Part shown: in pieces, positions 628-43,742 of the stretch | Numbering within the stretch: the first letter of the stretch is position 1 | Layout: each line of letters opens with the position of its first letter | NCBI GenBank assembly: GCA_013285735.1 | Contig: JABDGZ010000005.1 | Coordinates: 3,834-67,833, forward strand | DNA: 64,000 bases | Reading direction: 5' to 3' | DNA from: Candidatus Omnitrophota bacterium | GTDB taxonomy: Bacteria; Omnitrophota; Gorgyraeia; Zapsychrales; Fredricksoniimonadaceae | The notes under the pieces: model-generated | Database searches by the model: none | Told to the model about the DNA's origin: nothing | The model's input: the letters and a program-made list of their open reading frames with translations, nothing else | Program-made: the position numbers and the translations under genes

Positions 628-1329
628 ATGATTAAATATTTATCTAGTTGGATTTCTTTTGTTACAGATTTTTTTTGTTTTAGATCAATGGACCAGGATC
701 GTCGCTTTCCGATGGATTTGAGAAGGGTCTGTTTTTTTGGTCGGGATAAGTCCCAACAATCTTCTTTCGATGCTCATTATATTTTTCACACCTCTTGGGC
801 AGCGCGTATTTTAAAACGAACCTTGCCAAAGGAGCACATTGATATCTCTTCATCCTTGTATTTTGTTGGTATCGTTTCTGCTTTTATCCCTGTAAGATTT
901 TATGACTATCGTCCGGTCAGTCTTCCTTTAAGCGGCCTCGTTGTTGGTTCAGCTGATTTGACATCTTTAGAATTTCCTGACAATTCTATTTTCTCTCTTT
1001 CGTGCATGCATGTGGTTGAGCATATTGGATTAGGGCGTTATGGTGATCCTATCGATCCCAGTGGAGATTTGAAAGCTATTAATGAATTGAAGCGTGTTTT
1101 ATCATTGGGAGGGGATTTACTGTTTGTCACTCCTGTAGGATCACCAAGAATCATATTTCATGCGCATCGCATTTATGCCTATTCACAGATTATGAAATAT
1201 TTTGACGGACTTAAGCTTATGGAATTTATGTTAGTATTGGATGATGGATCTATAGTCCATGATGCTCCAGAAAGCCTTGCCAATGCCCAAGAATATGGTT
1301 GCGGCTGTTTTTGGTTTCGAAAGGAATGA
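628..1329 (+). CDS. SAM-dependent methyltransferase, DUF268-like
   Basis: 'LSCMHVVEHIGLGRYGDPIDPSGDLKAINELKRVLSLGGDLLFVTPVG' matches the VxEHxGLGRYGD signature I associate with DUF268 methyltransferases. Confidence 0.55.
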   Translation: MIKYLSSWISFVTDFFCFRSMDQDRRFPMDLRRVCFFGRDKSQQSSFDAHYIFHTSWAARILKRTLPKEHIDISSSLYFVGIVSAFIPVRFYDYRPVSLPLSGLVVGSADLTSLEFPDNSIFSLSCMHVVEHIGLGRYGDPIDPSGDLKAINELKRVLSLGGDLLFVTPVGSPRIIFHAHRIYAYSQIMKYFDGLKLMEFMLVLDDGSIVHDAPESLANAQEYGCGCFWFRKE

Positions 1330-2030
1330 GAATGTTATCAGTCGGTTTGGGCAATGAACAAAATAGAATAGATTGGGTGGCAAAAAAATTGAAAGAATTG
1401 CCTGCAGGCAGCCGCCTATTGGATGCAGGGGCCGGTGAGCAGCAATATAAAATTTATTGTTCTCATTTAAAATACGTTTCCCAAGATTTTGCAAAATATG
1501 AAGGAGTTGGTGATGGGGTGGGGTTACAAACAGGCAAATGGGACAATAATAAATTAGATATTATATCTGACATTACAAATATTCCAGAACCAGATGGGTC
1601 TTTTGATGCCATCATGTGCACCGAAGTCTTTGAGCATATACCTGACCCAATTACTGTTATTAAGGAGTTTTCCCGTCTTTTAAAAAAGGGAGGGGTTTTG
1701 ATAGTTACCGCTCCTTTTTGCAGTTTGACCCATTTTTCGCCTTATCATTTTTATACAGGTTTTAACCGGTATTTTTATCAAACGCTTTTAACCAAATATG
1801 GATTTCATCTATTAGAGATCCAATCTAATGGTAATTATTTTGAGTATTTGGCTCAGGAAATCAGACGAGTTATCCCTGTGGCAAAGAAATATTCCAATAC
1901 AAACATTAGTATAATTGAAAAAATAGTATTAGGCCTGGCTTTAATTGTTCTGCAACGGCTTAGTAAAAAAGATGCTGGTTCAAATGAGCTGCTGTGTTAC
2001 GGGTATCATGTTTTTGCGACCAAAGAATAA
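1326..2030 (+). CDS. class I SAM-dependent methyltransferase
   Basis: Motif I 'LLDAGAGEQQY', 'DAIMCTEVFEHIPDP', 'LKKGGVLIVTAP'. The ATG at 1326 overlaps the upstream stop as ATGA; the track start at 1299 is also possible. Confidence 0.7.
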   Translation: MRMLSVGLGNEQNRIDWVAKKLKELPAGSRLLDAGAGEQQYKIYCSHLKYVSQDFAKYEGVGDGVGLQTGKWDNNKLDIISDITNIPEPDGSFDAIMCTEVFEHIPDPITVIKEFSRLLKKGGVLIVTAPFCSLTHFSPYHFYTGFNRYFYQTLLTKYGFHLLEIQSNGNYFEYLAQEIRRVIPVAKKYSNTNISIIEKIVLGLALIVLQRLSKKDAGSNELLCYGYHVFATKE

Positions 2031-2933: not shown

Positions 2934-3908
2934 ATGAGTTCTCCTTCGGGAAAAATAGATATTTTACTTTCCACTTATAATGGTGAACGTTATTTAAGGG
3001 AACTTTTGGAATCAATCATCAATCAAAGTTTTACGGATTGGCGTTTGCTTATCCGTGATGATGGCTCTCGAGATAAAACACCTGAAATTCTTGATGAGTA
3101 CCATAGAAGAAATCCCGACAAGATCATATTAATGCCTCAGGCGGATGGTAATCTGGGGGCAATGTTATCTTTTGGAAAACTCATGGAATATTCGACAGCA
3201 TCTTACGTTATGTTTTGTGACCAGGATGATGTTTGGTTAAAAGATAAAATACAGTTATCCTTCAATAAGCTTTTGGAATTAGAACAGAAATTTGGCCATG
3301 AGAGGCCTTTGCTCGTTTATACAGACTCTATGTTGGCGGATCAAGATCTTAATGTTATTTCAAATTCCATGTTGCATCATATGGGCTTTGATAGGCCTAA
3401 GGTGGCTCAGTTCAGGAATTTGATCTTATGCAATGTCGCCATTGGAAATACGGTTATTTTTAATAGAGCTTTAGTAAAATTATCCTGCCCCATACCTAAA
3501 GACGCTACCATGCATGATTGGTGGGTTGCTATTGTAGCGTCTGCATTCGGCCATGTTGATTATGTACCAAGCCCTACTGTTTTTTATAGACAGCACGATG
3601 ATAATGTTTGCGGTTTGAGAAAAAAATGGTTAATAGGAATTTTGTCAAAATTTCCCAGCGAATACAAGAAATATTATCGATATCAAGAGCATGTCATGAA
3701 ACAAATAAAAGCTTTTTATGGGCATCTTGGTTCATTGTCAGATAATAAGCACGTTTCAAAAGAGGTCTTGATGCTTTCGCCCCTTGCTGATTTGAATAAA
3801 TTAGGATATTGGAAACGTAAGTCTTTCCTTTTTTCTTTTTATAAAGAATGCACGTATCGATTTAAAGCTATTGTAGACTTGATACTTTATTTCAAGATTT
3901 ATAGATAA
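2934..3908 (+). CDS. glycosyltransferase family 2
   Basis: 'IDILLSTYNGERYLRELLESIINQSFTDWRLLIRDDGSRDKT' (GT-A N-terminus) and 'FCDQDDVW' (DxD). Confidence 0.75.
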   Translation: MSSPSGKIDILLSTYNGERYLRELLESIINQSFTDWRLLIRDDGSRDKTPEILDEYHRRNPDKIILMPQADGNLGAMLSFGKLMEYSTASYVMFCDQDDVWLKDKIQLSFNKLLELEQKFGHERPLLVYTDSMLADQDLNVISNSMLHHMGFDRPKVAQFRNLILCNVAIGNTVIFNRALVKLSCPIPKDATMHDWWVAIVASAFGHVDYVPSPTVFYRQHDDNVCGLRKKWLIGILSKFPSEYKKYYRYQEHVMKQIKAFYGHLGSLSDNKHVSKEVLMLSPLADLNKLGYWKRKSFLFSFYKECTYRFKAIVDLILYFKIYR

Positions 3909-3911
3909 ATT

Positions 3912-4640
3912 ATGCTTGCCCCTAGTGACGATATAAAAGTTTTTTCGTTTGATATTTTTGATACAACAGTGACTCGCTTTGTCGCTGATCCGAGGGATGT
4001 TTTCAGGCTTTTGCAAGAAACGCTTAGCGGTGAGGCTTTTAAAGAGTTTCCTGCTGTTATTCGATGTAATTTTGCTGCGTTACGTTTTAAAGCAGCGTTG
4101 CATGCCCGTATCGAAGGTCTATCTCAAGGCAGGCAAGACATAGGGATCGCAGATATATATATGAAACTTCAAGCTTTTTGTCCTATTGATGACAATCAAT
4201 TGCATCAACTGATGGAAATGGAGTTCGCACAGGAATTGGCTTGTATTTATCCCGTGGCATGGACAGTGAGCGAAATAAATAATTTAAGAAAGCTTAATAA
4301 ACGGATTGTTTTTACGTCAGATATGTACCTGCCTTTGGATCTGATTGAAAAGATTTTGATGAAGGCGAATGTCTATGTTCCCTCACAGGATCATATTTAT
4401 CTTTCCAATAAACTGGGGATGACTAAGTTAAGTGGAAAATTGTTTAAATATATTTTAGAAAATGAAGAATGCCTTCCCCAGGAACTCTGTCATTATGGAG
4501 ATGATCTGCACAGCGATGTTTATATACCCTTCAAGATGGGGATTAGTGATTATGTTTTGGATGATAGGCAAAGAAAAAGAGTATTAAGATTCCATCATTT
4601 AAAAAGGATAAGAGATTATTTTAACAAATTGTGCTTTTAG
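3912..4640 (+). CDS. HAD-superfamily hydrolase
   Basis: Motif I 'FDIFDTTVTR' (DxDxT), motif II 'VFTSDM', motif IV 'GDDLHSD'. Confidence 0.6.
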   Translation: MLAPSDDIKVFSFDIFDTTVTRFVADPRDVFRLLQETLSGEAFKEFPAVIRCNFAALRFKAALHARIEGLSQGRQDIGIADIYMKLQAFCPIDDNQLHQLMEMEFAQELACIYPVAWTVSEINNLRKLNKRIVFTSDMYLPLDLIEKILMKANVYVPSQDHIYLSNKLGMTKLSGKLFKYILENEECLPQELCHYGDDLHSDVYIPFKMGISDYVLDDRQRKRVLRFHHLKRIRDYFNKLCF

Positions 4641-4707: not shown

Positions 4708-6012
4708 GTGTCCAGGGTTTGCCGTGTGTCTGCTTCGTATCCTGATGAGCATCAACAAACCATTTGGAACACCAGTGTTAATGTTATTGGGCCTGTATTT
4801 TTATTTTTTGTATGGTGGACCTTGCAAGAGGCACAACGGCGGGGAATTAAACGGCTTTATTTTTTAGCGCGGGATGGACAGGTTTTACTGGATATTGCGA
4901 ATCTTATCAAAGAGAGTGGGCATTTTGATATTGATTGCCGGTATTTATATGGCTCCAGGCAGTCATGGTTGACATCGTCAGTTAAAACGGTTGGGAAAAG
5001 TGAATTAAAATGGATTATGTCTGATTGGTGGTATCCTTTATCCATTGATTCCGTGTGCCGTAGGATGGGATTTAAACCGGAAGAATTAGGTAATTTCTTT
5101 GAACATAATGGTTTTCCTTCAGATCACTACAAGGAACTTCTGAATAGTGATCAAAAACAGAGATTGATACAATGTTTACAATCAGTAGCTTTCGGAGAAT
5201 TGTACCTTAAGTATAAACAGGAAGATCAGAGTAATATGCTGGGGTATTTAAGGCAGGAGGGTATTTTTGATAATGAAGCCTATGGCCTTGTGGATATAGG
5301 TTGGAGAGGGAATCAGCAGTTAACATTGAATAAAATTCTAAAAACGGAAGATGCTCTCCCTAAAAATGGTATTACCGGATTTTATTTAGGATTGACGGAA
5401 TCTGTACATAAGATTGAAAGCGATACCCTGTTAGGATTTTTATTTGATTTATCATCGAGTTCGAAACGGATTTACCTTAGGAATAATCATATTTATGAAG
5501 CTTTTACAGCGGGATTGGATGGCAGGGTCATTAAGTTTCGATCTGCGGATGGAAAGTTTTATCCTGCCATGGCAGAGGTGAATCAAAAACTTATCGAATG
5601 GGGAGTGGGGATTCAGCGGGAAGGCATATTAAAGTTTGCTAAAGAGTTTATGGCGCATGCCCCAGCAGCATCTATGGCTCAAGAGAACTATTATCCCGTA
5701 CTTGAAAAGATCATGTATAAATTTATTAATACTCCCAGTCTATCTGAAGCCCAGGTTTATGGCCAGTTTCCAATGGATGGAGAAATGACGGAAAGTCGTG
5801 TCCAGGAAATAGCCCCTGTCATTACCCGTCGGCAATTTTGGCAGTCATGCATTAACTTAAAAGACTTTCGTTTATATTGGATACAATCTGTCTTTATTAG
5901 GTCCCATTTATGGGTAGAATATAATTTATGGAAGATCATTTTGCCGGTTATTGCTTACTCCTTTTATTTGATGATTAAGTGTTTAAAATTGATAGGGATT
6001 TCACCGCTATGA
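4708..6012 (+). CDS. hypothetical protein, HAD-associated family ('FLARDG', 'DIGWRG' motifs)
   Basis: 434-aa ORF with a GTG start and no convincing RBS. The frame is open for 32 codons upstream. 'LYFLARDGQ' and 'LVDIGWRGNQQ' recall long HAD-like (COG5610-type) proteins. Confidence 0.35.
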   Translation: MSRVCRVSASYPDEHQQTIWNTSVNVIGPVFLFFVWWTLQEAQRRGIKRLYFLARDGQVLLDIANLIKESGHFDIDCRYLYGSRQSWLTSSVKTVGKSELKWIMSDWWYPLSIDSVCRRMGFKPEELGNFFEHNGFPSDHYKELLNSDQKQRLIQCLQSVAFGELYLKYKQEDQSNMLGYLRQEGIFDNEAYGLVDIGWRGNQQLTLNKILKTEDALPKNGITGFYLGLTESVHKIESDTLLGFLFDLSSSSKRIYLRNNHIYEAFTAGLDGRVIKFRSADGKFYPAMAEVNQKLIEWGVGIQREGILKFAKEFMAHAPAASMAQENYYPVLEKIMYKFINTPSLSEAQVYGQFPMDGEMTESRVQEIAPVITRRQFWQSCINLKDFRLYWIQSVFIRSHLWVEYNLWKIILPVIAYSFYLMIKCLKLIGISPL

Positions 6013-34524: not shown

Positions 34525-35427
34525 ATGCGCATTGCGATAACCGGTGCAACCGGAATGATTGGACTTAGGTTAACAGATTTTTTGTTGGCCCAAGGCCATC
34601 AAATGACAGTAGTTACTCGACGAAGTTCTTATCATCAGCCTCAGACATCGGTGATCGTTTGGGACCCATCATTAAATTATATAGAAAACGGGCGGTTAGA
34701 AGGTTTTGATGTTATTATTCATCTGGCGGGTAGCAATGTCGGTGAATATTGGAGTCCGGAATATAAGGAAGAAATTTTAGAAAGCAGGGTGCAGTCAACC
34801 AGGCTTTTATGTAAGGCTTTGTCTGAGGTGGCTTCTAAGCCTAAGCTTTTAATTGGCGCGTCAGCCATCGGGTTTTATGGCAATCATCCATCAGATAAAA
34901 TTCTAGATGAGAACAGTCCGTCGGGTGAAGGTTTTCTAGCAGATGTCTGCCGTCAATGGGAAGAAGCAACTGGTCCTGCTGCTCAAGCTGGTATTCGGGT
35001 TGTGCGCATGAGATTAGGGGTTGTTTTGAGTCAAGCAGGTGGGGCCTTAGCCAAAATGTGGCAGCCTTTTCAATTAGGCATTGGCGGTGTTTTAGGCAAT
35101 GGCCAACAGATGATGAGTTGGGTTGCTTTAGATGAAATTCCCTATGTCATTGACTATTTAATTAATAACGATAAGATTACAGGTGCAGTAAACGTAGTTT
35201 CCCCACAGGCTGTCTCAAATGCAGAGTTTACGAAAGTTTTAGGCCAGGTTATTCACCGGCCGACGTTTTTACCTGTACCTGCTTTTGTGATCCGTTTACT
35301 GTTTGGGGAAATGGGTCAGAGTTTGTTGTTGGAAGGTGCTCATGTAATCCCTCGCCGTTTGCAGGAAAGTGGCTATCAATTTCGTTTTGTTGATTTAAAG
35401 GATGCTTTAAAAATATGTCTTACTTAG
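34525..35427 (+). CDS. TIGR01777/YfcH-type epimerase family protein (DUF1731 C-terminus)
   Basis: 'MRIAITGATGMIG' Rossmann N-terminus. C-terminal 'VIPRRLQESGYQFRFVDLKDAL'. Confidence 0.7.
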   Translation: MRIAITGATGMIGLRLTDFLLAQGHQMTVVTRRSSYHQPQTSVIVWDPSLNYIENGRLEGFDVIIHLAGSNVGEYWSPEYKEEILESRVQSTRLLCKALSEVASKPKLLIGASAIGFYGNHPSDKILDENSPSGEGFLADVCRQWEEATGPAAQAGIRVVRMRLGVVLSQAGGALAKMWQPFQLGIGGVLGNGQQMMSWVALDEIPYVIDYLINNDKITGAVNVVSPQAVSNAEFTKVLGQVIHRPTFLPVPAFVIRLLFGEMGQSLLLEGAHVIPRRLQESGYQFRFVDLKDALKICLT

Positions 35428-37001
35428 TTCTAGCTCGCAAATATCGTCCTCAAAGTTTTGATGAATTAGTCGGACAAACCCACATCACCGAGCTTTTGAG
35501 AAAGTCGATTGAATCCGGCCGCATTGCCCATGCTTTTTTATTCTGCGGGCCCCGCGGGATTGGAAAAACTTCGACCGCCAGGATTTTGGCTAAATCACTT
35601 AATTGCCAGAACGGCCCGACGTTAAAACCCTGTGGTGAATGTTCTGCCTGCCTTGAAATCGCTAATGGCAACAGTTTTGACGTGATTGAGATCGATGGCG
35701 CTTCTAATCGCGGTATTGATGAAATCCGTACCCTTCGTGAGAATGTCAAATTTGCGCCCAGCTATGGTCGATATAAAATTTATATTGTTGATGAAGTCCA
35801 TATGCTCACATCGGATGCTTTTAACGCCTTGTTAAAGACTTTAGAAGAGCCTCCTGAGCATGTGAAATTTATTTTTGCCACTACCGAAGTCCATAAGGTA
35901 CCTGCAACTATTCTTTCCCGCTGCCAGCGTTTTGATTTCAAACGCATTCAGGTTGAGATCATCATGGATAATCTCAAGAATATCTGTGCTAAGGAAAATC
36001 TGAAGGCTAATGAAGAGGCTCTTTTTGCTATTGCCAAGGCGTCTCAAGGAAGCATGCGTGATGCTTTGAGTGTTTTGGATCAATTAAGTGCCCTAAGCGA
36101 TAAGGGTATCGATGCGGCAGATGTATTTTCGATGCTGGGGATGGTGGAGATTGAATTTTTATTTGACCTGACAGATGCTCTGATTGCGCGTAATTGTGTT
36201 AAGGCTTTGGATATTTTTAATCAAATCATTGAGCGAGGCAAGGATATTAAGCAATTAGGTAAAGATTTAACCGAGCATTTTAGGCATCTGATGATCGTGA
36301 AGGTAGGGGGTGTTAGTTTAAATGGTTTGATTGATTATCCATCAGGTGTCAAACAGCGTCTAGCTGTTCAAGCGGAAAAAATTACGATTGCTGGAATTCT
36401 CAAGGCCATCGAACTTTTTATTGAGGCCCAGGAGACGGCCAAGGTTATGGAGACTCTGCGTATGCCTTTGGAATTAGCTTTTGCCAAATTAACTTATGGC
36501 GGATCAACAGGAATAATATCATCAATACCGTCAGTGACGACAACTACCACAGCCAGTACTAAGCCTGGTGTTCCTGTGGCGATACCTGCGTCTGCTGCCA
36601 AGGCTCCTGTTGCGGTACAAGCGCCTAAAGTTACTATCAAGGCTGAATCATTGGAAGAGATCAAGGCGCATTGGAATGCCTTGACGCATGAAATTTCCCG
36701 TCGCAAAATGGCTTTAGCTACCTACTTACAAGAGGGAGAGCCTTGTGAGTTTAAAACAAATCGATTGGTGATTGGATTCGCCAAAGGCAACGCTTTTGCT
36801 AAAGATAGTTTAGATACAAAAGAGAATTTGAAATTCATTGAAGAGATATTTTCAGAAAAATTAAATGCTCCTATTGTTGTAGGTTTTAGAATTATAGAAA
36901 AGACGAGCACTAATATTAAACAAGAAGAACCAGTAGTCAGGACCGCTTTGGAAATGTTCGGCGGTAAAGTAGTCAAAGAATGGCCTAACGCACAGAAGTA
37001 A
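35415..37001 (+). CDS. dnaX: DNA polymerase III subunit gamma/tau
   Basis: 'LARKYRPQSFDELVGQ', 'GPRGIGKTSTARILAKSLNC', zinc module 'CGECSACLEI', 'SRCQRFDF'. Confidence 0.9.
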   Translation: MSYLVLARKYRPQSFDELVGQTHITELLRKSIESGRIAHAFLFCGPRGIGKTSTARILAKSLNCQNGPTLKPCGECSACLEIANGNSFDVIEIDGASNRGIDEIRTLRENVKFAPSYGRYKIYIVDEVHMLTSDAFNALLKTLEEPPEHVKFIFATTEVHKVPATILSRCQRFDFKRIQVEIIMDNLKNICAKENLKANEEALFAIAKASQGSMRDALSVLDQLSALSDKGIDAADVFSMLGMVEIEFLFDLTDALIARNCVKALDIFNQIIERGKDIKQLGKDLTEHFRHLMIVKVGGVSLNGLIDYPSGVKQRLAVQAEKITIAGILKAIELFIEAQETAKVMETLRMPLELAFAKLTYGGSTGIISSIPSVTTTTTASTKPGVPVAIPASAAKAPVAVQAPKVTIKAESLEEIKAHWNALTHEISRRKMALATYLQEGEPCEFKTNRLVIGFAKGNAFAKDSLDTKENLKFIEEIFSEKLNAPIVVGFRIIEKTSTNIKQEEPVVRTALEMFGGKVVKEWPNAQK

Positions 37002-37013
37002 GAATTCTATCTA

Positions 37014-37037
37014 TGTCATTCCAGCGAAAGCCGGAAT
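37014..37037. repeat. small GAAA-loop hairpin repeat (TGTCATTCCAGCGAA family)
   Basis: ATTCCAGC-GAAA-GCCGGAAT (37018-37037, one mismatch) between the dnaX stop and the recR start. Shares TGTCATTCCNGCGAA with the element at 32106. Confidence 0.55.
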
Positions 37038-37045
37038 CTTTAATT

Positions 37046-37645
37046 ATGTACCCCAAACTAATAGAAACATTAATTGAACGCTTAACAAAACTCCCTGGCA
37101 TCGGCCGCCGCAGTGCTGAACGCATCGTGTATTGGATGCTGGCCCATGATGCTCAGGATGTCAAGGCCTTGGCAGATAGTATTCAGCAGCTAAAAGAGGG
37201 TTTACGTTTTTGCAAGCAGTGCAATCATTTAAGCGAGCAGGAGTTATGCTTGGTCTGCGCAGATACTAATCGTGACCGGAAAACTATCTGTATCGTTGAG
37301 AGTCCCAAAGATCTTTTGGCCATCGAACGCACCGGCTCTTACCGGGGTATTTATTATGTCTTATTAGGCAATATTTCTCCGTCGGAAGGTCGTGGTCCTG
37401 ATGATTTGAATTTGCCTAAGTTGATTAGTCGTATCAAGGATGAAGGGATTGGGGAGATTGTGATTGCCACTGATCCGGATGCAGAAGGTGAGATGACATC
37501 ATTATACTTGTCTAAAGAGTTAAAAAATCTGGGCGCACGCATCAGCCGTATTGGGCTTGGCATACCCGTCGGTTCTGCCGTTGAATATGTGGATATCTCC
37601 ACATTAACAATGTCCATGAACTCTCGCAGATTGGTTGACTTCTAA
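37046..37645 (+). CDS. recR: recombination protein RecR
   Basis: 'LTKLPGIGRRSAERI' (HhH), C4 'CKQCNHLSEQELCLVC', Toprim 'ICIVESPKD'. Start at ATG 37046; the upstream extension covers the hairpin repeat. Confidence 0.9.
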   Translation: MYPKLIETLIERLTKLPGIGRRSAERIVYWMLAHDAQDVKALADSIQQLKEGLRFCKQCNHLSEQELCLVCADTNRDRKTICIVESPKDLLAIERTGSYRGIYYVLLGNISPSEGRGPDDLNLPKLISRIKDEGIGEIVIATDPDAEGEMTSLYLSKELKNLGARISRIGLGIPVGSAVEYVDISTLTMSMNSRRLVDF

Positions 37646-37662
37646 AACTTTTTAAGTATAAT
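37635..37662 (+). promoter_or_regulatory. sigma70-like promoter for the tRNA-Asn gene
   Basis: TTGACT (37635-37640), 16-nt spacer, TATAAT (37657-37662). Lies about 38 nt upstream of the tRNA 5' end, inside the recR 3' end. Confidence 0.45.
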
Positions 37663-37699
37663 AGCCGTACTTTTTATTTCGTTCTTAAAAAAGCTTTAT

Positions 37700-37980
37700 T
37701 CCCCTGTAGCTCAGTCGGTAGAGCAACTGGCTGTTACGTAAAGTTAGCAGCCTTTAGCGGAAACGCTAGAGTGATAAGTGGGCTAAGTCAGGGAAACCCA
37801 TTAGTTTAATGGGCAATCCTGAGCTAGCATCTATCAGTTAAATGGTAGAGGGCAAGTGCAGAGACTTTACACCCACCGCCCACAGTCTTTTTAGACCGGG
37901 CGAAGAGAAAGTCCGACTCCTGTCGTAAGATAGGTCAGATTGTAACCAGTATGTCCGAGGTTCGAGCCCTCGCGGGGGAG
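37700..37980 (+). tRNA. tRNA-Asn(GUU) interrupted in the anticodon loop by a 208-nt intron
   Basis: Exon 1 (37700-37734): acceptor TCCCCTG, D-arm GCTC-AGTCGGTA-GAGC, anticodon stem ACTGG, then CTGT. Exon 2 (37943-37980): TAA, CCAGT, variable ATGTC, T-arm CGAGG-TTCGAGC-CCTCG, acceptor CGGGGGA, discriminator G. The spliced loop CTGTTAA gives anticodon GTT. CCA is not encoded. Confidence 0.85.
37735..37942 (+). ncRNA. group I intron (IC3-like, no ORF)
   Basis: P1: exon GGCTGT pairs with intron GCAGCC (37747-37752), with a U.G pair at the splice site. P10: GTTA (37743-37746) pairs with exon-2 TAAC. The terminal nucleotide is G (37942). Conserved core strings: TCAGGGAAACC (37788), GGCAATCCTGAGC (37812), GTGCAGAGACT (37856), GAGAAAGTCC (37905). 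Confidence 0.8.
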
Positions 37981-37988
37981 CTTCTTCT

Positions 37989-38039
37989 AGAAAGTCTGCA
38001 ACATATTGAAATTTAATAAGTTGCAGACTTTCTATTTTT
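37989..38039 (+). terminator. rho-independent terminator after the tRNA
   Basis: 14-bp perfect stem AGAAAGTCTGCAAC (37989-38002) / GTTGCAGACTTTCT (38020-38033), followed by ATTTTT. Confidence 0.65.
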
Positions 38040-38050
38040 ATTACGTCGAG

Positions 38051-38065
38051 AAAATCCGAACTTTT
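38051..38065. repeat. inverted partial copy (L1) of the cassette-end core
   Basis: AAAATCCGAACTTTT is the reverse complement of the AAAAGTTCGGATTTT core found in the four R elements. Lies 11 nt after the tRNA terminator. Confidence 0.6.
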
Positions 38066-38116
38066 GAATTCGAAATTACGATTGCGGTGTCATTTTTGTT
38101 GTGTTATAGTTCTTTT

Positions 38117-38368
38117 ATGCCGACGATACTTGAAATTTTAGGGTAGAGACTGTTTTTTTATGCGAATGAAAATAACGAGCCAATACATATTCATGCCCGT
38201 AAAGCAGGGATGGAATGTAAATATTGGATTGACGTTAAAGGGTTTGATATCACCGAAGCATATTCCTTTGGCTTGAAGGAAAAAGAAAAAAGGGAAATCC
38301 GTAGAATTATTTTTGATCATTTTGATTACATTGTAGATAAATGGAATGAATTTGAGAGGAGAAAATAA
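38117..38368 (+). pseudogene. DUF4160 family protein gene with in-frame TAG at codon 10
   Basis: Translation 'MPTILEILG*RLFFYANENNEPIHIHARKAGMECKYWIDVKGFDITEAYSFGLKEKEKREIRRIIFDHFDYIVDKWNEFERRK'. The TAG is at 38144-38146. The ORF abuts the DUF2442 start, the usual pair arrangement. A TTGCGG-17-TATAGT promoter-like site lies upstream. Confidence 0.6.
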
Positions 38369-38626
38369 ATGAAACCAATACATAGAATTCAAAGAATAGC
38401 TTTTTCAGGCTCTCAATTGAAGATAAAAGTGGATGGTAAAGAAGTTGTTATTAATTTAACCAAAGTTTCTCCAAGATTACTTAAGGCTTCGAAAAAAGAA
38501 CGTGAAGCTTATGAGATTTCTCCTTCTGGGTATGGTATACATTGGCCGCTGATTGATGAAGATCTTTCCGTTGATTCACTTTTAGGGATTAAACATTTGC
38601 CTTCCAAAGAATTTGTTAGTAAATAA
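38369..38626 (+). CDS. DUF2442 family protein
   Basis: 85 aa. 'YGIHWPLIDEDLSVDSLLG' is the DUF2442 hallmark. AGGAG RBS upstream. Confidence 0.7.
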   Translation: MKPIHRIQRIAFSGSQLKIKVDGKEVVINLTKVSPRLLKASKKEREAYEISPSGYGIHWPLIDEDLSVDSLLGIKHLPSKEFVSK

Positions 38627-39011
38627 CAATATTTTTTAGCCTGATAAACACGCCATAAACCTGGCAAACGCGCCATTTGCTAAGAAGCAAAAGCATCTGT
38701 TAATCGCGCAAAAATTGCTCGATTAGTGCGCGATTGATAGTTGAGACATTTATGGGACATTTGGGACATAGGGAACTTAATGGACTCATAAAGGACTCAA
38801 AGGGCTCAATATATCGGACACATCAGACAATGGAGACATAAAGAGGACAAAGGGGACATTTGAGCAAATGGTTCATAATTGGATCAAATAGCTCTATTAT
38901 TCTGGCGATTGCTTGGCGATTAGCTTCTTAAAGTGCACGAATTGCACGATTTTTGCACGTTTTTGTATTGCGCATTATGCGCATTTAATGCGCAAAAGAT
39001 TTATCTGAATT
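38627..39011. repeat. non-coding phased-word module, copy 1
   Basis: Runs of G/C-rich words, each followed by an A/T tract and each reiterated 2-3 times at 9-13-nt spacing (examples: GGGACATTT, GGCGATT, GCACG+T-run, TGCGCATT). A homologous copy lies at 39895-40361. Confidence 0.8.
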
Positions 39012-39104
39012 AAAAATAATCCATCTATCTCCATCTTTAGCTTTGGTCAGCAGGCCTAGTGTTACCTCATAAGAAAAGTTCGGATTTCTGGGGGACTCGC
39101 GGAG
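39012..39104. repeat. cassette-end element R-A
   Basis: AAAAATAATCCATCTATC...AAAAGTTCGGATTTCTGGGGGACTCGCGGAG. One of 4 copies. The minus strand reads LRESPRNPNFSYEVTLGLLTKAKDGDRWIIFNSDKSFAH*. Confidence 0.85.
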
Positions 39105-39115
39105 TTTTCACAAAT

Positions 39116-39147
39116 AGCTGTAAGTAAATAACTTACAGCTGTTTTTT
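39116..39147 (+). terminator. hairpin/terminator after R-A
   Basis: AGCTGTAAGT (39116-39125) / ACTTACAGCT (39131-39140), followed by GTTTTTT. Confidence 0.55.
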
Positions 39148-39216
39148 ATTTATTCCGACGAGAGAATTCACCTAAAAGTGAGTTTTTGAAAATAATACTT
39201 CCCAAAATGGGAAATT

Positions 39217-39228
39217 ATGGTATATTTA
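39217..39228 (+). promoter_or_regulatory. shared cassette promoter-like 12-mer ATGGTATATTTA (higBA copy)
   Basis: An identical 12-mer lies at 40544-40555 upstream of brnT. It contains the -10-like TATATT 7 nt before the higB GTG. The adjacent inverted repeat TTCCC-N5-GGGAA (39199-39213) is a possible operator. Confidence 0.35.
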
Positions 39229-39232
39229 AATC

Positions 39233-39532
39233 GTGAGAGTAATATCGGTTAAGAAGTTAAAAGATTTTTGGAGTAAGCCGGCTTACCGTGATTCCGAGCA
39301 GGCCCTCCGAGCTTGGTATGCGGAAGCTAAAAAGGGTAATTATTTTCACTCTCACCAGATTAAACAGATTTACCGGAAAGCTAGTATTGTCGGTAATGGA
39401 CGAATCGTATTTAATATTTGTGGGAATAAATATCGTTTAGTGGTGGCAGTTAAATATGAGTTTAAAATTTTTTATATTCGTTTCATTGGAACACACAGTC
39501 AGTATGACAATATTGATGTAAAGGAGATATGA
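39233..39532 (+). CDS. higB: type II toxin HigB (RelE/HigB mRNA interferase)
   Basis: 'FNICGNKYRLVVAVKYEFKIFYIRFIGTHSQYDNI' is the HigB signature. GTG start. Confidence 0.8.
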   Translation: MRVISVKKLKDFWSKPAYRDSEQALRAWYAEAKKGNYFHSHQIKQIYRKASIVGNGRIVFNICGNKYRLVVAVKYEFKIFYIRFIGTHSQYDNIDVKEI

Positions 39533-39894
39533 TTATGGAAATAAAAATTCATCCAATTAATTCGAAGAAGGATTACGAAAAAGCCTTAAGCACAATTGAC
39601 CGCTTATGGGATGCCAAATCGGGTACCGAGGAGGGCGATACTTTAGACGTGCTCACTACATTAGTTGAAGCTTACGAAAACAAGAATTACCCCATGCTGC
39701 CTCCCAATCCCGTTGAAGCTATTAAATTTCGTATGGAGCAGATGGGAATTGGGAAGGCTGACGTTGCCAATATTCTTGGTGGGGCCAATAGGGTTTCTGA
39801 AATTTTGCATAAAAAACGGAAATTAAGTTTGAGGATGATTCGTAATTTGCATGATAAATTAAAAATTCCCTATGAATCTTTAATACCTGCTTAG
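39529..39894 (+). CDS. higA: type II antitoxin HigA (HTH-XRE)
   Basis: ATGA overlap with the higB stop. 'DYEKALSTIDRLWDAKSGTEEGDTLDVLTTLVEAYE' plus a C-terminal HTH 'KADVANILGGANRVSEIL'. Confidence 0.8.
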   Translation: MIMEIKIHPINSKKDYEKALSTIDRLWDAKSGTEEGDTLDVLTTLVEAYENKNYPMLPPNPVEAIKFRMEQMGIGKADVANILGGANRVSEILHKKRKLSLRMIRNLHDKLKIPYESLIPA

Positions 39895-40361
39895 TTTCAA
39901 CCCGCCAACTTGACAAACACGCCATAAATACGCCAAACGCGCCTACCAAGGGGCATTAAAGGAGCAAAAGGGGCAGTGTTAATCGAGCAAAAATTGCCCG
40001 ATTAGTGCGTGATTAATATTTGAGACATTTATGGGACATTTGGGACATAGGAAGCTTAAAGGACTCAAAGGGCTCAATATATCGGACGTTTATCGGACAT
40101 ATTAGACAATGGAGACATAAAGGGGCCATTTGCGCAAATGGTTCATAATTAGCTTAAATGGCCCAGTAGAAACTTGACATAAACCCGACAAACACGACAT
40201 TTTGAAATGGGCCAGAATGGGGCCAAAATGGCCCTATTATGTTGGCGATTCTGGCGATTATTTGGCGATTAGATTCTAAAGTGCACGAATTGCAGGATTA
40301 TTGCACGTTTTTATATTGCGCATTATGCGCATTTAGTGCGCAAAGGTGCTCATGTTATTTC
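39895..40361. repeat. non-coding phased-word module, copy 2
   Basis: Collinear with 38627-39011, sharing the same word order: ACACGCCATAAA..., GAGACATTTATGGGACATTTGGGACATAGG, GGCGATT x3, GTGCACGAATTGCA..., TTGCGCATTATGCGCATTTA. Carries ~90 extra nt (GGGCCA/GGCCC words) around 40150-40240. Confidence 0.8.
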
Positions 40362-40450
40362 AAAATAATCCACCGGTCGCCAGTTTTTGAATTGGTAAGA
40401 CCTAGAATTATTTCATAAGAAAAGTTCGGATTTCTAGGGGACGTGGGGAG
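40362..40450. repeat. cassette-end element R-B
   Basis: AAAATAATCCACCGG...AAAAGTTCGGATTTCTAGGGGACGTGGGGAG. The minus strand reads LPTSPRNPNFSYEIILGLTNSKTGDRWIILK*. Confidence 0.85.
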
Positions 40451-40470
40451 TTTGATAGTCGAAGAAGGGT

Positions 40471-40483
40471 AAAATCCGAACTT
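40471..40483. repeat. inverted partial copy (L3) of the cassette-end core
   Basis: AAAATCCGAACTT lies 20 nt after R-B, forming an inverted repeat with AAGTTCGGATTT of R-B. Confidence 0.6.
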
Positions 40484-40490
40484 CTTGGTA

Positions 40491-40524
40491 AAAAAGCCGT
40501 CCTTAATACAAGGATGGCTTTTTT
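40491..40524 (+). terminator. rho-independent terminator
   Basis: AAAAAGCCGTCC-loop-GGATGGCTTTTTT. Confidence 0.55.
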
Positions 40525-40565
40525 ATTGAATAATGCTAAGAATATGGTATATTTACATTGTACAT

Positions 40566-40859
40566 ATGGATGATCTTAAATTCGATTGGGACAAAAATAA
40601 GGCAGTGCTTAATAAAAAGAAACATGGTGTTTCTTTTGAAGAAGCTGTCACGGTATTTTATGACGATGATGCTTTAGAATTTCATGATCCTGATCATTCT
40701 GAGAGTGAAGACAGATTTTTTATGGTAGGTTTGAGTTTTCGCACAAGGGTTTTGCTGGTTTCTCATTGTATAAGAGAAGCTGGATCATTAATTAGAATCA
40801 TTTCGGCCAGAAAAGCAACCAAGCAAGAAGCTGGGAAATATTGGGAGGAAAAGACATGA
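40566..40859 (+). CDS. brnT: type II toxin BrnT (DUF497)
   Basis: 'FDWDKNKAVLNKKKHGVSFEEAVTVFYDDDALEFHDPDHSESEDRFFMVG...IRIISARKATKQE'. Start at ATG 40566. Confidence 0.8.
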   Translation: MDDLKFDWDKNKAVLNKKKHGVSFEEAVTVFYDDDALEFHDPDHSESEDRFFMVGLSFRTRVLLVSHCIREAGSLIRIISARKATKQEAGKYWEEKT

Positions 40860-41077
40860 GAGCAGAATATGATCTATCAAAAATGAAGTTTCGTCGTAAT
40901 CCTTATGCTGCCCGGTTGAAAAGGCCAGTTACAATCCGTTTGGGCGCAGATATTATTAGCTATTTTAAGTCAATGGCTAAAGAAATGGGTGTGCCCTATC
41001 AGAATTTAATTAACTTATATTTAAGGGATTGTGTACAGGCCCATCGTAAGATAGGGTGGATATCTAATTTAAAATAA
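40856..41077 (+). CDS. brnA: type II antitoxin BrnA
   Basis: ATGA overlap with the brnT stop. GGGAGG RBS. 'VTIRLGADIISYFKSMAKEMGVPYQNLINLYLRDC' fits the BrnA/CopG-like pattern. Confidence 0.75.
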   Translation: MRAEYDLSKMKFRRNPYAARLKRPVTIRLGADIISYFKSMAKEMGVPYQNLINLYLRDCVQAHRKIGWISNLK

Positions 41078-41159
41078 TCCATCTATCTCTGTTTTTAGCA
41101 TTGGTTAGGCCAAGGATCACTTCATATGAAAAGTTCGGATTTCTGGGGGACTCGCGGAG
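41071..41159. repeat. cassette-end element R-C
   Basis: Starts within the brnA stop region. The minus strand reads LRESPRNPNFSYEVILGLTNAKNRDRWIILN*. Confidence 0.85.
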
Positions 41160-41163
41160 CCAT

Positions 41164-41207
41164 ATAATAAGAAAGCCCATCAGATTTATGATGGGCTTTC
41201 TTATTAT
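41164..41207. terminator. perfect 19-bp hairpin (bidirectional terminator-like)
   Basis: ATAATAAGAAAGCCCATCA (41164-41182), 6-nt loop, TGATGGGCTTTCTTATTAT (41189-41207). Confidence 0.5.
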
Positions 41208-41402
41208 ATTATTGGCGGGGGAGCGAAAGCTCGAAGTGTGTGCTCTTTTTAAGGGTTTGAAAAGATAGTTATTGATTGAGAAGAATTAATTTCGAAAATA
41301 TTTTTAATTTTCGTCGCTGTATATAGTTTGAAAAACGGCGGGATATATGTTATGGTTTACGGTTACCGAGAATTTTGAGATATTTTAATATTGGAAGGTT
41401 AC

Positions 41403-42698
41403 ATGAACTGTGGTTCAATTAAAGTATTTATTTTTGTCTTTTTTATGTTTTTGACGCTCTTAACCGGCTGCCCTAAGTCTTTTGCGCAACCTGTCTCGCC
41501 CACAGGAGGGGATGATTCTTCCATAAGTAAGGGAACTTCAGATGACCAAGCCAGTGAAGCTAGTGCCGATGAGTCATTGAAGCAGATTCATGATTTGGAA
41601 TTGAAAATGGAGGAGAATAGCAAGCGCTTGGACGCTCTGGAAAAGGCTATCAATCAAGCAAATACAGAAAATGCCCCTGCTGTTGAAACTGCACCCGATA
41701 CCAATACGATGATTCAACAAGCCTCCGCACAGGCAGCCCCGGACCAAACAGCTCCTGCTTCCCAGACAGCTCCCCGTGAGCAAGTTTCTTCAATCAAAGA
41801 TTCCTCTCGATTTGATCCGATATCAATGCGCATTATTTCAGACCCTCTATATTTACCGCTTAAGGGACAATTTTATGGTTCGACCGAATATGATTTTTCC
41901 AGGAATAGTTACAGTCAGGATAATTATTTAGGTAAAGAATATGCATATGATAAAAGCGATACCAATGAAGTTTCTCAGGATTTAGAGTATGGTTTGACCG
42001 ATGATTTGACCCTAAGATTTTATGATGAATTTCAAGATGATAGAAGGTATGTTGCAGGTGAAGGCGAATATTTATTTATTGGTTTTATTAATCCGGAATT
42101 TGGTGCCACTTATAGGATGATTGATCAGAAGCAATATCCAGTAGATGTTGATTTAATAGCTAATTATTACCCAGATGTTTTTAGTGAGAAAGCGGCAACT
42201 CCTGACAAAACAGGAACAGTGGCATCGGGCGGTCAGAAGATTACTTTGAGGGAAGCAGTAGGTCGAGAAATGAGAAATTTAACGATCCAGGGTTTTGTTG
42301 AAGTAGAATATCAGGGTAAGGAAAAAACTGAAATTTTGGCAGACGATAGGGATGCTGAAGACAAAGCGAGCTGGGCATATGTCTTTGGGTTAAATACCCA
42401 AATCCGTATAACGGATCGTTTTTCAGTCAATTTTGGGGGGGCATATACAGTTGCAAATAACATGGATTATACAAGTAGCACGGGGCTTTCAGGTATTCAT
42501 GTTCCAGCCGATTATAGTGATTTCGACACATCTTTAAACTATCAATTTATTCCTGATAGGCTGGTTGGTAGTTTAACTTATACCCGTAATGTTGACGATG
42601 ACAGAAAATATTTGTACGCGAACGTAGTTCACGATGAAATAGATAGGAAATATAGCCAGGATATTTTTGGGATAAAGTTTTCATATCTTTTTAATTAA
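41403..42698 (+). CDS. lipoprotein with coiled-coil N-region and beta-rich C-region (possible outer-membrane protein)
   Basis: Signal peptide plus lipobox 'LLTGC'. Low-complexity Q/A/P linker. Alternating aromatic pattern, ending 'FGIKFSYLFN'. No family recognised. Confidence 0.4.
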   Translation: MNCGSIKVFIFVFFMFLTLLTGCPKSFAQPVSPTGGDDSSISKGTSDDQASEASADESLKQIHDLELKMEENSKRLDALEKAINQANTENAPAVETAPDTNTMIQQASAQAAPDQTAPASQTAPREQVSSIKDSSRFDPISMRIISDPLYLPLKGQFYGSTEYDFSRNSYSQDNYLGKEYAYDKSDTNEVSQDLEYGLTDDLTLRFYDEFQDDRRYVAGEGEYLFIGFINPEFGATYRMIDQKQYPVDVDLIANYYPDVFSEKAATPDKTGTVASGGQKITLREAVGREMRNLTIQGFVEVEYQGKEKTEILADDRDAEDKASWAYVFGLNTQIRITDRFSVNFGGAYTVANNMDYTSSTGLSGIHVPADYSDFDTSLNYQFIPDRLVGSLTYTRNVDDDRKYLYANVVHDEIDRKYSQDIFGIKFSYLFN

Positions 42699-42786
42699 AA
42701 ATAATCCATCTATTTTTGCTTTTACCATTCGTAAGTCCCAAAATGACCTCATAGAAAAAGTTCGGATTTCTGGGGGACTCGGGGAG
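42697..42786. repeat. cassette-end element R-D
   Basis: Overlaps the lipoprotein stop codon. The minus strand reads LPESPRNPNFFYEVILGLTNGKSKNRWIIFN*. Confidence 0.85.
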
Positions 42787-42879
42787 CCAATTTGATTAAG
42801 CCCGTTGTGAGTGTTATACCTGCAGCGAGTTTACTTATTATATGGAAGCAAGTGTGAGTATTTTATTTGCTATGTCGTT

Positions 42880-43074
42880 ATGAGTCGTTGGAAGCGTCTA
42901 GAAAATCTTGAGAGAAATTTGTCACGAATGTCAGTTAAAGAAATTAAAATAGAACTGGCATATTGGCGGCAACATGCAAATTTATTAGCTCCTTCGATTA
43001 AGAAATTAGCGATGAAGCGCGTTTTTAAGATTGAAAGAATATTAAAGCAAAAAGAAAATGAAGATATTATTTAA
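42880..43074 (+). CDS. hypothetical 64-aa basic protein
   Basis: 'MSRWKRLENLERNLSRMSVKEIKIELAYWRQH...'. No recognisable domain. The start is chosen at an internal ATG. Confidence 0.3.
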   Translation: MSRWKRLENLERNLSRMSVKEIKIELAYWRQHANLLAPSIKKLAMKRVFKIERILKQKENEDII

Positions 43075-43158
43075 AGGTTTAGTTGTAAAGCTAGTTTCAG
43101 AATTACTTTTTTATTTTATTATCCAATTGTAAAACATGTCCACGTAGTGGAGTCATTT

Positions 43159-43190
43159 AGCCCGTCAGAATTATTCTGACGGGCTTTTTG
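43159..43190 (+). terminator. rho-independent terminator
   Basis: AGCCCGTCAGAA-loop-TTCTGACGGGCT followed by TTTTTG. Confidence 0.6.
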
Positions 43191-43259
43191 TTTACCTTGA
43201 CAGTTAACTTAATGAGACTAGTATATTTTAGAAGTTAACAATTTATTACGGGGCAAATA

Positions 43260-43742
43260 ATGCAATCTTTACAGGAACTTAACCCGAAAAGGGTCGATGT
43301 AGTTATTTTGATAATCCTTTCTATTGTTTTGCTTATTATTGGATTAACTCTTCCAATTTTGACTGTTCGTCAATTATGGAATAGTAATACCTATTCGATC
43401 CTGACGGGTATACAAAATCTTTGGCAAACAAAGTATTACGCTTTGGCCGTCATCATATTCGTTTTTTCCATTATTTTTCCTATTGCAAAGTTACTTTCCC
43501 TGTCTGCTGTTTGGTTTATAAGGTTAAAAGATGAACAAAGGAAGGGTCTTGTTTTATTGATGGAGATTTTCGGTAAATGGTCTATGTTGGATGTTTTTGT
43601 AACGGCAATCATGATTGTATGGCTTAAGTTAGGAGCGATAGCATCAGCCAAAGCAGAGAATGGGATCTATTTTTTTGCAGCATCTGTATTGTTGACAATG
43701 ATTGTTTCTTCTTTACAGAGCAGTTTAGTAAAACGTTCTTAA
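43260..43742 (+). CDS. PqiA-like (paraquat-inducible protein A family) membrane protein, single domain
   Basis: Four TM segments. 'FPIAKLLSLSAVWF' and 'GKWSMLDVFVTAIMIV' resemble PqiA-family motifs. Confidence 0.55.
   Translation: MQSLQELNPKRVDVVILIILSIVLLIIGLTLPILTVRQLWNSNTYSILTGIQNLWQTKYYALAVIIFVFSIIFPIAKLLSLSAVWFIRLKDEQRKGLVLLMEIFGKWSMLDVFVTAIMIVWLKLGAIASAKAENGIYFFAASVLLTMIVSSLQSSLVKRS

Follow-up and report, generated by a model that had tools for sequence, protein, structure and literature searches.

Two copies of a non-coding repeat, which we call the module, lie among four short gene cassettes in a 64,000-nucleotide stretch of a Candidatus Omnitrophota genome (contig JABDGZ010000005.1, positions 3,834 to 67,833; the whole stretch is hereafter the window). 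Comparison with metagenomic and viral contigs, which carry handles of the form L006, established that the module is a real, non-coding and modular repeat of no known family, situated in the 3' region of mobile toxin-antitoxin (TA) or defence cassettes in Omnitrophota-type genomes. It is likewise established from sequence comparison that the module evolves as entire units of 9-11 bp, or entire blocks, are added or removed. What is new in this analysis is the arrangement of the module into three-site blocks of fixed spacing, 11+9 in the left part and 9+11 in the right, with mirror polarity. The pattern is real and unusual and makes clear, testable predictions in an uncultured host.

Each copy lies between the last gene of a cassette and a repeat termed R, as a first-pass annotation of this DNA had placed them (stop codons at 38626 and 39894; R cores at 39075 and 40421). 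The homology of the two copies, which the annotation had put at 75-80% by eye, proved closer: mean column identity in a MAFFT alignment was 81% with gaps included, and a global alignment matched 326 of 363 aligned columns (90%) with 126 gap columns. Most differences are whole-unit insertions or deletions (+10, -11, +11/-9 and +79 nt), and the extra length of copy 2, given earlier as about 90 nt, measured 82 nt (467 against 385). Within the window a repeat scan and a simple stutter detector found this texture only in these two places; Tandem Repeats Finder reported only arrays of 2-3 copies with a period of 9 or 11. The sense strand of the module is purine-rich and C-poor (GC skew +0.12 to +0.14).

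The spectral check against shuffled controls that the annotation had proposed gave a peak at 10-11 nt in the distribution of A/T versus G/C (z = 4-7 against dinucleotide shuffles), and normalised periodic power exceeded that of 409/409 same-length windows of the 64 kb for copy 1 and of 407/408 for copy 2. Automatic segmentation, which split the sequence at A/T runs, yielded 37 units with a mean of 9.8 nt in copy 1 and 43 units with a mean of 10.5 nt in copy 2. Unit lengths had standard deviations of 2.6 and 3.6, compared with 7.2 and 7.8 in shuffles, none of which was as regular (0/500). Adjacent words were also more similar than in order-permuted arrays (0/2000 permutations matched), so that the earlier description of G/C-rich words, each followed by an A/T run, reiterated and then drifting, was borne out. 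Units thus average about one helical turn. The sequence autocorrelation peaked at lags 9, 11 and 20, not 10, because word triples are spaced 11 and then 9. The locally best period wanders from 9.0 to 11.8 nt along the module, and because of this drift phase is held within blocks and not across the ~35 turns over which the A/T tracts had been thought to be phased.

The building block spans 30 bp: a G/C-rich word of 5-7 bp with CA at its end occurs three times in an A/T scaffold, at a fixed spacing of 11+9 bp. Without exception, the clear three-word blocks of both copies had (11,9) spacing if they belonged to the left part and (9,11) spacing if they belonged to the right. Left-part blocks identified by a detector were CGCCA, GGGGCA, GAGACA/GGGACA and GGACTCA, with the same spacing seen by eye for GGAGACA/GAGGACA/GGGGACA; right-part blocks were TGGCG, GCACG and TGCGCA. 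Read on the other strand, a (9,11) block becomes (11,9), and the polarity is therefore mirrored around a central palindrome. When reverse-complemented, the right blocks fit the left scaffold of a word ending in CA, about 5 A/T, a word, about 3 A/T and a word. The 79-nt insertion of copy 2, right of the palindrome, also contains a forward-type triple.

Close HigA homologues (76-91% identity) were used to survey the 3' context of higBA, the operon that precedes copy 2. Peat contigs L005-L009 carried higBA and the first ~245 nt of the module, ended by an IS21-family insertion, and L013 and L014 retained only the first CGCCA block and the GCGCATTAAT word before R-like sequence. In the syntenic metagenome-assembled genome (MAG) L024, ~95 nt with a different hairpin separated higA from R; in L025 this distance was ~20 nt; and the module was absent after higA in L010, L012, L015, L016 and L026. 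Across cassettes whose HigA proteins are 76-91% identical, the HigA-to-R spacer was 467, at least 245, ~95, ~75, ~20 or 0 nt. At the syntenic locus L026 the module does begin downstream of DUF2442 and is then cut by IS21-like sequence. The module is broken by a different IS21-family sequence in each of two lineages, from ~1124 onward in L006 and from ~5336 onward in L026, with IstB genes or fragments lying on the opposite strand; this suggests from sequence that the module may be a preferred or tolerated target of IS21-family insertion. In the syntenic relative L012, a 162-aa open reading frame (ORF) with a Clp_N domain (2043-2531) stands after DUF2442, in the place of module copy 1, and leads into a short R-like tail and then a terminator.

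Scanning metagenomes with the first block as query returned four further loci, L017-L020; a fifth match, L021, proved to be contig L007 again. Each of these arrays directly follows, or runs into, the 3' end of another small gene: the HEPN gene of an MNT-HEPN pair in one case and homologous HATPase_c_4/winged-helix regulators in the others. A 143-aa gene beside the L017 and L018 arrays had no Pfam match and no homologue in the window or at the other loci. L017 and L020 are minimal homologues in which (CGCCA)x3 (11,9) directly abuts (TGGCG)x3 (9,11), whereas the TGGCG arm of L018 and L019 is partly degenerate; in L017-L019, GGGGCA-type words come next after this core. Treated as a hairpin of single-stranded DNA, the minimal core was unconvincing (z = -2.1, -1.8, -0.7 and -0.2). 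In L017 (2650-2700, minus strand) the last codons of the winged-helix regulator gene (GCGGAAATT, ..AEI*) recur twice more downstream and once in inverted form, so that the stutter here begins from the gene's own 3' end. In L018 (664-1140, minus strand) and L020 (1383-1745, minus strand) the upstream ORF runs through the first (CGCCA)x3 (..QTRHKRAKHAIDEQVG*), and the array supplies its C-terminus and stop codon.

Single blocks were also present in viral contigs. L023 carries TTGGCGATT x3, 1 nt different from the L017 block, ~50 nt downstream of a 65-aa gene; a search for a histone-fold or other DNA-binding neighbour of the block gave no Pfam match. In L030, GGGCATTAAAGGAGCAAAAGGGGCA, identical to window positions 39947-39971, lies 2 nt past a stop codon, joined directly to a terminator hairpin. 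A third viral contig, L022 (200-1000, minus strand), has a ~800-nt non-coding region with several short direct-repeat families (GTAACCCC x4, ACGCC x3 and GTAAACC x4-5); its CACGCCATAAAACGGCCAAAAACGCCC resembles the first block of the module and could be a convergent or chance match.

The first 140 nt of the module were 87.6% identical between the window and L006, above the third codon positions of higA (64%) and higB (71%); the comparison therefore suggests that this part is under constraint. The two window copies (90%) are also closer to each other than are the adjacent R elements (72-84%), though the genes of the two cassettes are unrelated. Other observations speak against constraint: the central part is poorly conserved in L006, close relatives carry anything from 0 to 467 nt of module, and selection on the A/T-G/C class of positions was considered and was not seen.

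Two further claims of the first-pass annotation, that the module is non-coding and that it is not a recognised element, stood up to analysis. Insertions and deletions of 9, 10, 11 and 79 nt shift every reading frame, and ORFs inside the modules were of chance size only (42-75 aa). Rfam gave no module match at the gathering threshold across the whole window, nor at E <= 5 in 37600-43300. The whole module showed no similarity to cultured phages and plasmids, and the minimal core gave chance-level matches only (E >= 1) to the same sets. A literature search on Omnitrophota and toxin-antitoxin repeats returned nothing relevant. Coding, CRISPR and ToxI-like identities were rejected on anatomy, and a tandem-repeat signal in L003 was an artefact of an N-run.

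Xis, Cox/Apl, ParR and OmpR/PhoB-type proteins bind DNA head to tail, with the word in one groove, an A/T run half a turn later and one site per 9-11 bp. Because three-site 11+9 blocks with mirror polarity look, by analogy, like such head-to-tail sites, we tentatively favour, with clear reservations, the view that the module is an extragenic mosaic repeat that grows by slippage and offers directional docking sites to a small DNA-binding protein; of the readings in the annotation, a helically phased protein-binding array would fit best. On each oriented block, a small protein able to oligomerise would place three subunits head to tail, one per helical turn, and the module would form an architectural nucleoprotein array beside the recombination- or attachment-like R site of the cassette. 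Slipped-strand mispairing at the A/T runs would reiterate words two or three times, after which they would drift. Support comes from unit regularity and neighbour-word similarity far beyond chance; from the behaviour of blocks as portable units, as seen in L023 and L030; from the first 140 nt exceeding synonymous-site identity and the copies exceeding R identity; and from the context, a tRNA-Asn-linked cassette island in which each cassette ends in R. RNA folding only weakly better than in shuffles also speaks for it.

Several points weigh against docking sites. No candidate binding protein was found, nor did the island or its immediate surroundings contain a recombinase, Xis-like, par or rep gene, and more than eight words would need several proteins, or one that reads only the scaffold. 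Phase is not kept over the whole array. Of 30 copy-to-copy substitutions, 23 change the A/T-G/C class, and the pattern is not preferentially preserved. Related higBA cassettes have no module or only 20-95 nt, so any function is dispensable. The orientation is the same after six gene contexts (DUF2442, HigA, HEPN, the HATPase_c_4 regulator and the genes upstream in L023 and L030), and this conservation, together with the location inside the transcription unit, suits an RNA-level role equally well.

Such a role, in which a 3'-untranslated-region (3'-UTR) RNA element is read through from the TA promoter and closed by the CGCCA/UGGCG blocks as a stem, is a serious rival, possible though rather doubtful. 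The element may shield the antitoxin-distal end of the mRNA or titrate an RNA-binding protein or RNase via GGNCA-type motifs. In its favour, the module is set between stop codon and intrinsic terminator, keeps its sense orientation after six different upstream genes and has a purine-rich, C-poor sense strand. A hairpin near the left end is conserved (38698-38741 and equivalents), and the minimum-free-energy fold of copy 2 contains a domain closed by CGCCA/UGGCG arms; copy 1 has lost one word per arm, and the TGGTG variants in the right arms of L018 and L019 would retain G-U pairs on the sense strand only. The folding itself argues the other way, with z values of only -2.0 and -2.6 for the sense strands of the two copies (-1.4 antisense), and the minimal core of L018 and L019 folds like shuffles. 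The conserved hairpin shows no compensatory changes or covariation among the three sequences compared (the two copies and L006), and the absence of an Rfam match extends to E = 5. Most left-arm words (GGGACA, GGACTCA) lack a complementary partner, and the dominant feature is direct, not inverted, repetition. The module could instead be functionless, slippage-prone filler, a minisatellite-like array born at a cassette junction, still expanding and contracting by microhomology slippage between A/T runs and carried because it is harmless; this, too, is a serious rival, possible though rather doubtful. The spacer varies from 467 to 0 nt at HigA identities of 76-91%, the copies differ by whole-unit insertions and deletions, and only 2-3-copy arrays of period 9 or 11 were detectable. 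The last codons of the gene upstream in L017 are themselves triplicated, the centre is poorly conserved in L006, A/T-G/C class is not conserved, and IS21-family elements have twice inserted into the module at no apparent cost. Filler does not readily account for the first 140 nt, conserved well above the synonymous-site level, or for identical 25-29-nt blocks in unrelated gene contexts and viral contigs, and a fixed 11+9 scaffold with mirror polarity in both copies is unexpected from random slippage.

Less likely than either are a folded recombination site and strongly curved DNA. In a site like the attC of integrons, the (CGCCA)x3/(TGGCG)x3 arms would pair in single-stranded DNA for a cassette-moving recombinase, with the middle as a variable loop. 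The module starts at or within ORF 3' ends (those of L018 and L020 read into the first block) in conserved orientation to the ORF, has dyad polarity with conserved ends and a variable middle, shrinks to a minimal core of attC-like size (~62 nt), and sits in a cassette array rich in TA genes, as in chromosomal integrons. We nevertheless judge an attC-like site very unlikely: the RYYYAAC/GTTRRRY core pair is missing, neither the island nor the syntenic loci showed an integron integrase gene, and hairpin stability is near the shuffle level. Moreover, cassettes 3 and 4 have R without a module, so that R marks cassette ends, and L013 retains the left arm and no right arm. Intrinsic strong curvature from phased A/T tracts, which the annotation had predicted, receives hardly any credence from us. 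The 10-11-nt A/T periodicity speaks for it, as does mean local curvature in a wedge model, which placed copy 1 in the top 0.5% and copy 2 in the top 4% of same-length windows; the wedge values serve as a relative ranking only. The ratio of end-to-end distance to contour length (0.79 and 0.74) fell within the shuffle distribution, however, while ordinary 400-nt windows reach 0.40-0.65. A-runs alternate with T-runs, and with a local period that wanders over 9-11.8 nt the phase is not coherent along the whole array.

It is also conceivable, if unlikely, that the three-word block is itself an undescribed portable non-coding unit with a fixed scaffold (word, 5 A/T, word, 3 A/T, word) and a free word. 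Single units would lie just past stop codons in genes of phages and mobile elements, and units concatenated with mirror polarity would form arrays of 0.06-0.47 kb in Omnitrophota TA or defence cassettes; the block would amount either to a mobile element of very small size or to a programmable code by which a family of small DNA- or RNA-binding proteins docks.

By analogy with described systems, the module most resembles extragenic mosaic repeats (BIME/REP of enterobacteria, BOX of pneumococci) in kind and Xis/Cox/arm-type or parC-type arrays in site geometry. Like BIME/REP and BOX, it is non-coding, follows stop codons within transcription units near terminators, and is a mosaic of short motifs in alternating orientation whose unit number varies among close relatives; it is thus an extragenic 3'-end mosaic with both orientations and a variable number of units. 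It has no sequence similarity to them, and in place of their palindromic units of 35-45 nt it has 5-7-nt words repeated directly three times at 11+9 spacing. Whereas those families are dispersed genome-wide, the module has two copies within the 64 kb, with blocks and cores recurring in other metagenome and viral contigs, and no RAYT-type transposase was seen. The X1-X1.5-X2 sites of lambda Xis, the sites of P2 Cox and 186 Apl, the P'1-P'3 sites of lambda Int and the OmpR/PhoB boxes share with the module one site per 9-11 bp, a G/C-rich word with an A/T-rich spacer, and oriented sites in groups of about three; the phage arrays lie beside an attachment site as the module lies beside R, in an island with tRNA-Asn at one edge and 10 nt of the tRNA 3' end repeated at the other. 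Those arrays use one word and one protein, in contrast to more than eight word families over 35-45 sites, and no integrase or excisionase gene lies near the module.

Type II plasmid centromeres (R1 parC, pSK41 parC) and iterons likewise consist of contiguous 10-11-bp direct repeats, and these form a protein-coated scaffold. The earlier suggestion of a parC- or iteron-like array did not hold, since more than eight words are each repeated 2-3 times in place of one conserved iteron and no par or rep gene (parM, parR or rep) is adjacent; the module is moreover of hypervariable length and lies in a chromosomal 3' UTR. No partition or replication initiator gene was found among the neighbours (DUF4160/DUF2442, HigBA, BrnTA and the 435-aa ORF) or at syntenic loci. 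Integron attC sites also lie directly 3' of, or overlap, cassette ORFs in fixed orientation, as imperfect dyads with conserved ends and a variable centre in TA-rich arrays. The module differs: the R''/R' consensus is missing, each arm has three boxes at 11+9, the length reaches 467 nt and intI is absent; in the window a separate repeat, R, marks every cassette end. On reading the module sequence, the attC core RYYYAAC/GTTRRRY was absent, the nearest words, GCCAAAC and GTTGGCG, breaking the consensus. No integrase or recombinase was called in the island or syntenic loci, the whole 64 kb not having been scanned protein by protein. RNA antitoxins of type III TA systems (ToxI) are tandem-repeat non-coding sequences inside a TA locus as well, with near-identical 34-36-nt units upstream of the toxin, unlike the drifting 9-11-nt units downstream of a protein antitoxin gene.

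If the blocks are true docking sites, they would constitute a compact modular grammar (three sites, 11+9, a variable word, mirror-oriented arms) linking phage genes, TA and defence cassettes and a hypervariable island at a tRNA, in a phylum without genetics, and would offer a way into the question of how such cassettes move or become insulated. If the module is slippage filler, it would be a clean natural case of the propagation of helical-turn-sized units and a caution against inferring function from 10-bp periodicity.

Table 1 Features of the modules, the cassette island and the R elements. Positions are those of the window unless a contig handle is given.
Feature	Position	Strand	Details
Module copy 1	38627-39011	+	385 nt, ~37 word + A/T units; between DUF2442 stop and R1
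First block, copy 1	38649-38675	+	CACGCCA-CTGGCA-GCGCCA, forward polarity, 11+9; middle word degenerate; conserved in L006, L013, L017-L020
Conserved hairpin	38698-38741	+	TGTTAATCGCGCA...TGCGCGATTGATAG; 44 nt, near left end; copy 2 equivalent 39977-40020; also in L006
Forward blocks, copy 1	38742-38860	+	GAGACA/GGGACA, GGACTCA, CGGACA/CAGACA, GGAGACA/GAGGACA/GGGGACA; 11+9 (detector for the first two; GGAGACA spacing read from the sequence)
Central palindrome, copy 1	38857-38870	+	CATTTGAGCAAATG; polarity switch, 11+9 left, 9+11 right
Reverse blocks, copy 1	38903-38995	+	TGGCGx2, GCACGx3, TGCGCAx3; two three-word blocks 9+11
Module copy 2	39895-40361	+	467 nt, ~43 units; between HigA stop and R2
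First block, copy 2	39918-39944	+	(CGCCA)x3, 11+9
GGGCATTAAAGGAGCAAAAGGGGCA block, copy 2	39947-39971	+	11+9; 25/25 identical to the block of viral contig L030
Central palindrome, copy 2	40126-40141	+	CCATTTGCGCAAATGG; polarity switch, 11+9 left, 9+11 right
Reverse blocks, copy 2	40243-40343	+	TGGCGx3, GCACG-type x3, TGCGCAx3; 9+11
tRNA-Asn(GUU)	37700-37980 (about)	+	Left border of cassette island; anticodon loop split by group I intron
Cassette 1: DUF4160 + DUF2442	38117-38626	+	Pfam; DUF2442 ends 38626
Cassette 2: higB + higA	39233-39894	+	Pfam; HigA ends 39894
Cassette 3: brnT + brnA	40533-41077	+	Pfam
Cassette 4: 435-aa ORF	41391-42698	+	No Pfam match
R1	39008-39105	+	Core AAAAGTTCGGATTTCTGGGGGAC at 39075; terminator 39112-39144 downstream
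R2	40357-40453	+	Core at 40421; then inverse arm AAATCCGAACTT (40472-40486) and terminator 40489-40525
R3	41066-41160	+	Core at 41130; directly after brnA, no module; terminator 41162-41209 downstream
R4	42693-42787	+	Core at 42757; directly after 435-aa ORF, no module
R in L002	~5040-5150	-	
R in L003	~1455-1560	-	
R in L004	~1070-1180	+	
R in L024	~5440-5545		
R in L026	~3515-3615		

All four cassettes lie on the plus strand 3' of tRNA-Asn, with gene identities assigned by Pfam, and every one closes with R, a repeat of ~95 nt with an invariant core of 23 nt (Table 1). The module is present only in cassettes 1 and 2, with a stop codon on one side and R on the other. A terminator-like hairpin with a T-rich tail follows each of the first three R elements. 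The reverse complement of the first half of the R core (AAATCCGAACTT) opens cassettes 1 (38052-38065) and 3 (40472-40486), and because of these copies at their starts the two cassettes are bracketed by inverted repeats of 14-15 nt, in the manner of a miniature inverted-repeat transposable element (MITE) or a split palindrome. Two Omnitrophota MAGs and one 'Planctomycetales' MAG also carry the R core, there right after the stop codon of an unrelated gene and before a terminator, with no module. More generally, in several Omnitrophota-type MAGs R starts at or just past the stop codons of unrelated genes, usually with a terminator next. RNAalifold paired a 5' TCCATC..CC with a 3' GGGGGAC..GGA in R with little covariation, and Rfam gave no match for R. 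R may be a recombination site, a MITE end or an RNA element; its derivation from tRNA-Asn as a pseudo-tRNA was rejected because local alignment was no better than with shuffles.

On one side the cassette array is bordered by tRNA-Asn, preceded by dnaX (35415-37001) and recR (37013-37645); its other border is formed by pqiA and ssb-type genes. One further copy of the tRNA 3' end, GCGGGGGAGC, stands as a 10-nt match at 41215-41224 (0.05 matches expected by chance), and because of this recurrence cassettes 1-3 look like an island integrated at tRNA-Asn. In L024 a 21-nt direct repeat of the tRNA-Asn 3' end (5720-5740) closes the island. On sequence grounds, these direct repeats in the window and L024 look like the attL/attR pair of an integrase-less island.

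In cassette 1, the DUF4160 gene has an in-frame TAG at codon 10 (38144-38146), a position that encodes Trp in the L012 orthologue; DUF4160 is thus probably inactivated, with DUF2442 intact. The predicted higBA promoter of cassette 2 (39199-39226) overlaps an inverted repeat, TTCCCA-N3-TGGGAA (39199-39213), which is likely to be the HigA operator. The module words TGGGAC and AGGGAA (38753-38775) resemble a half-site of this repeat and might act as decoy operators.

ARAGORN did not report the tRNA-Asn(GUU), which is interrupted by a group I intron matching Rfam RF00028 (37725-37935, 76 bits). The corresponding intron of L012 encodes a 127-aa ORF (911-1294), that of L026 has no ORF, and the tRNA-Asn of L024 at the same locus is intronless. 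Just 5' of the L024 tRNA-Asn lie four 23-nt direct repeats (TTTTTAGGCATGTCG...; 4340-4440) that are absent from the window.

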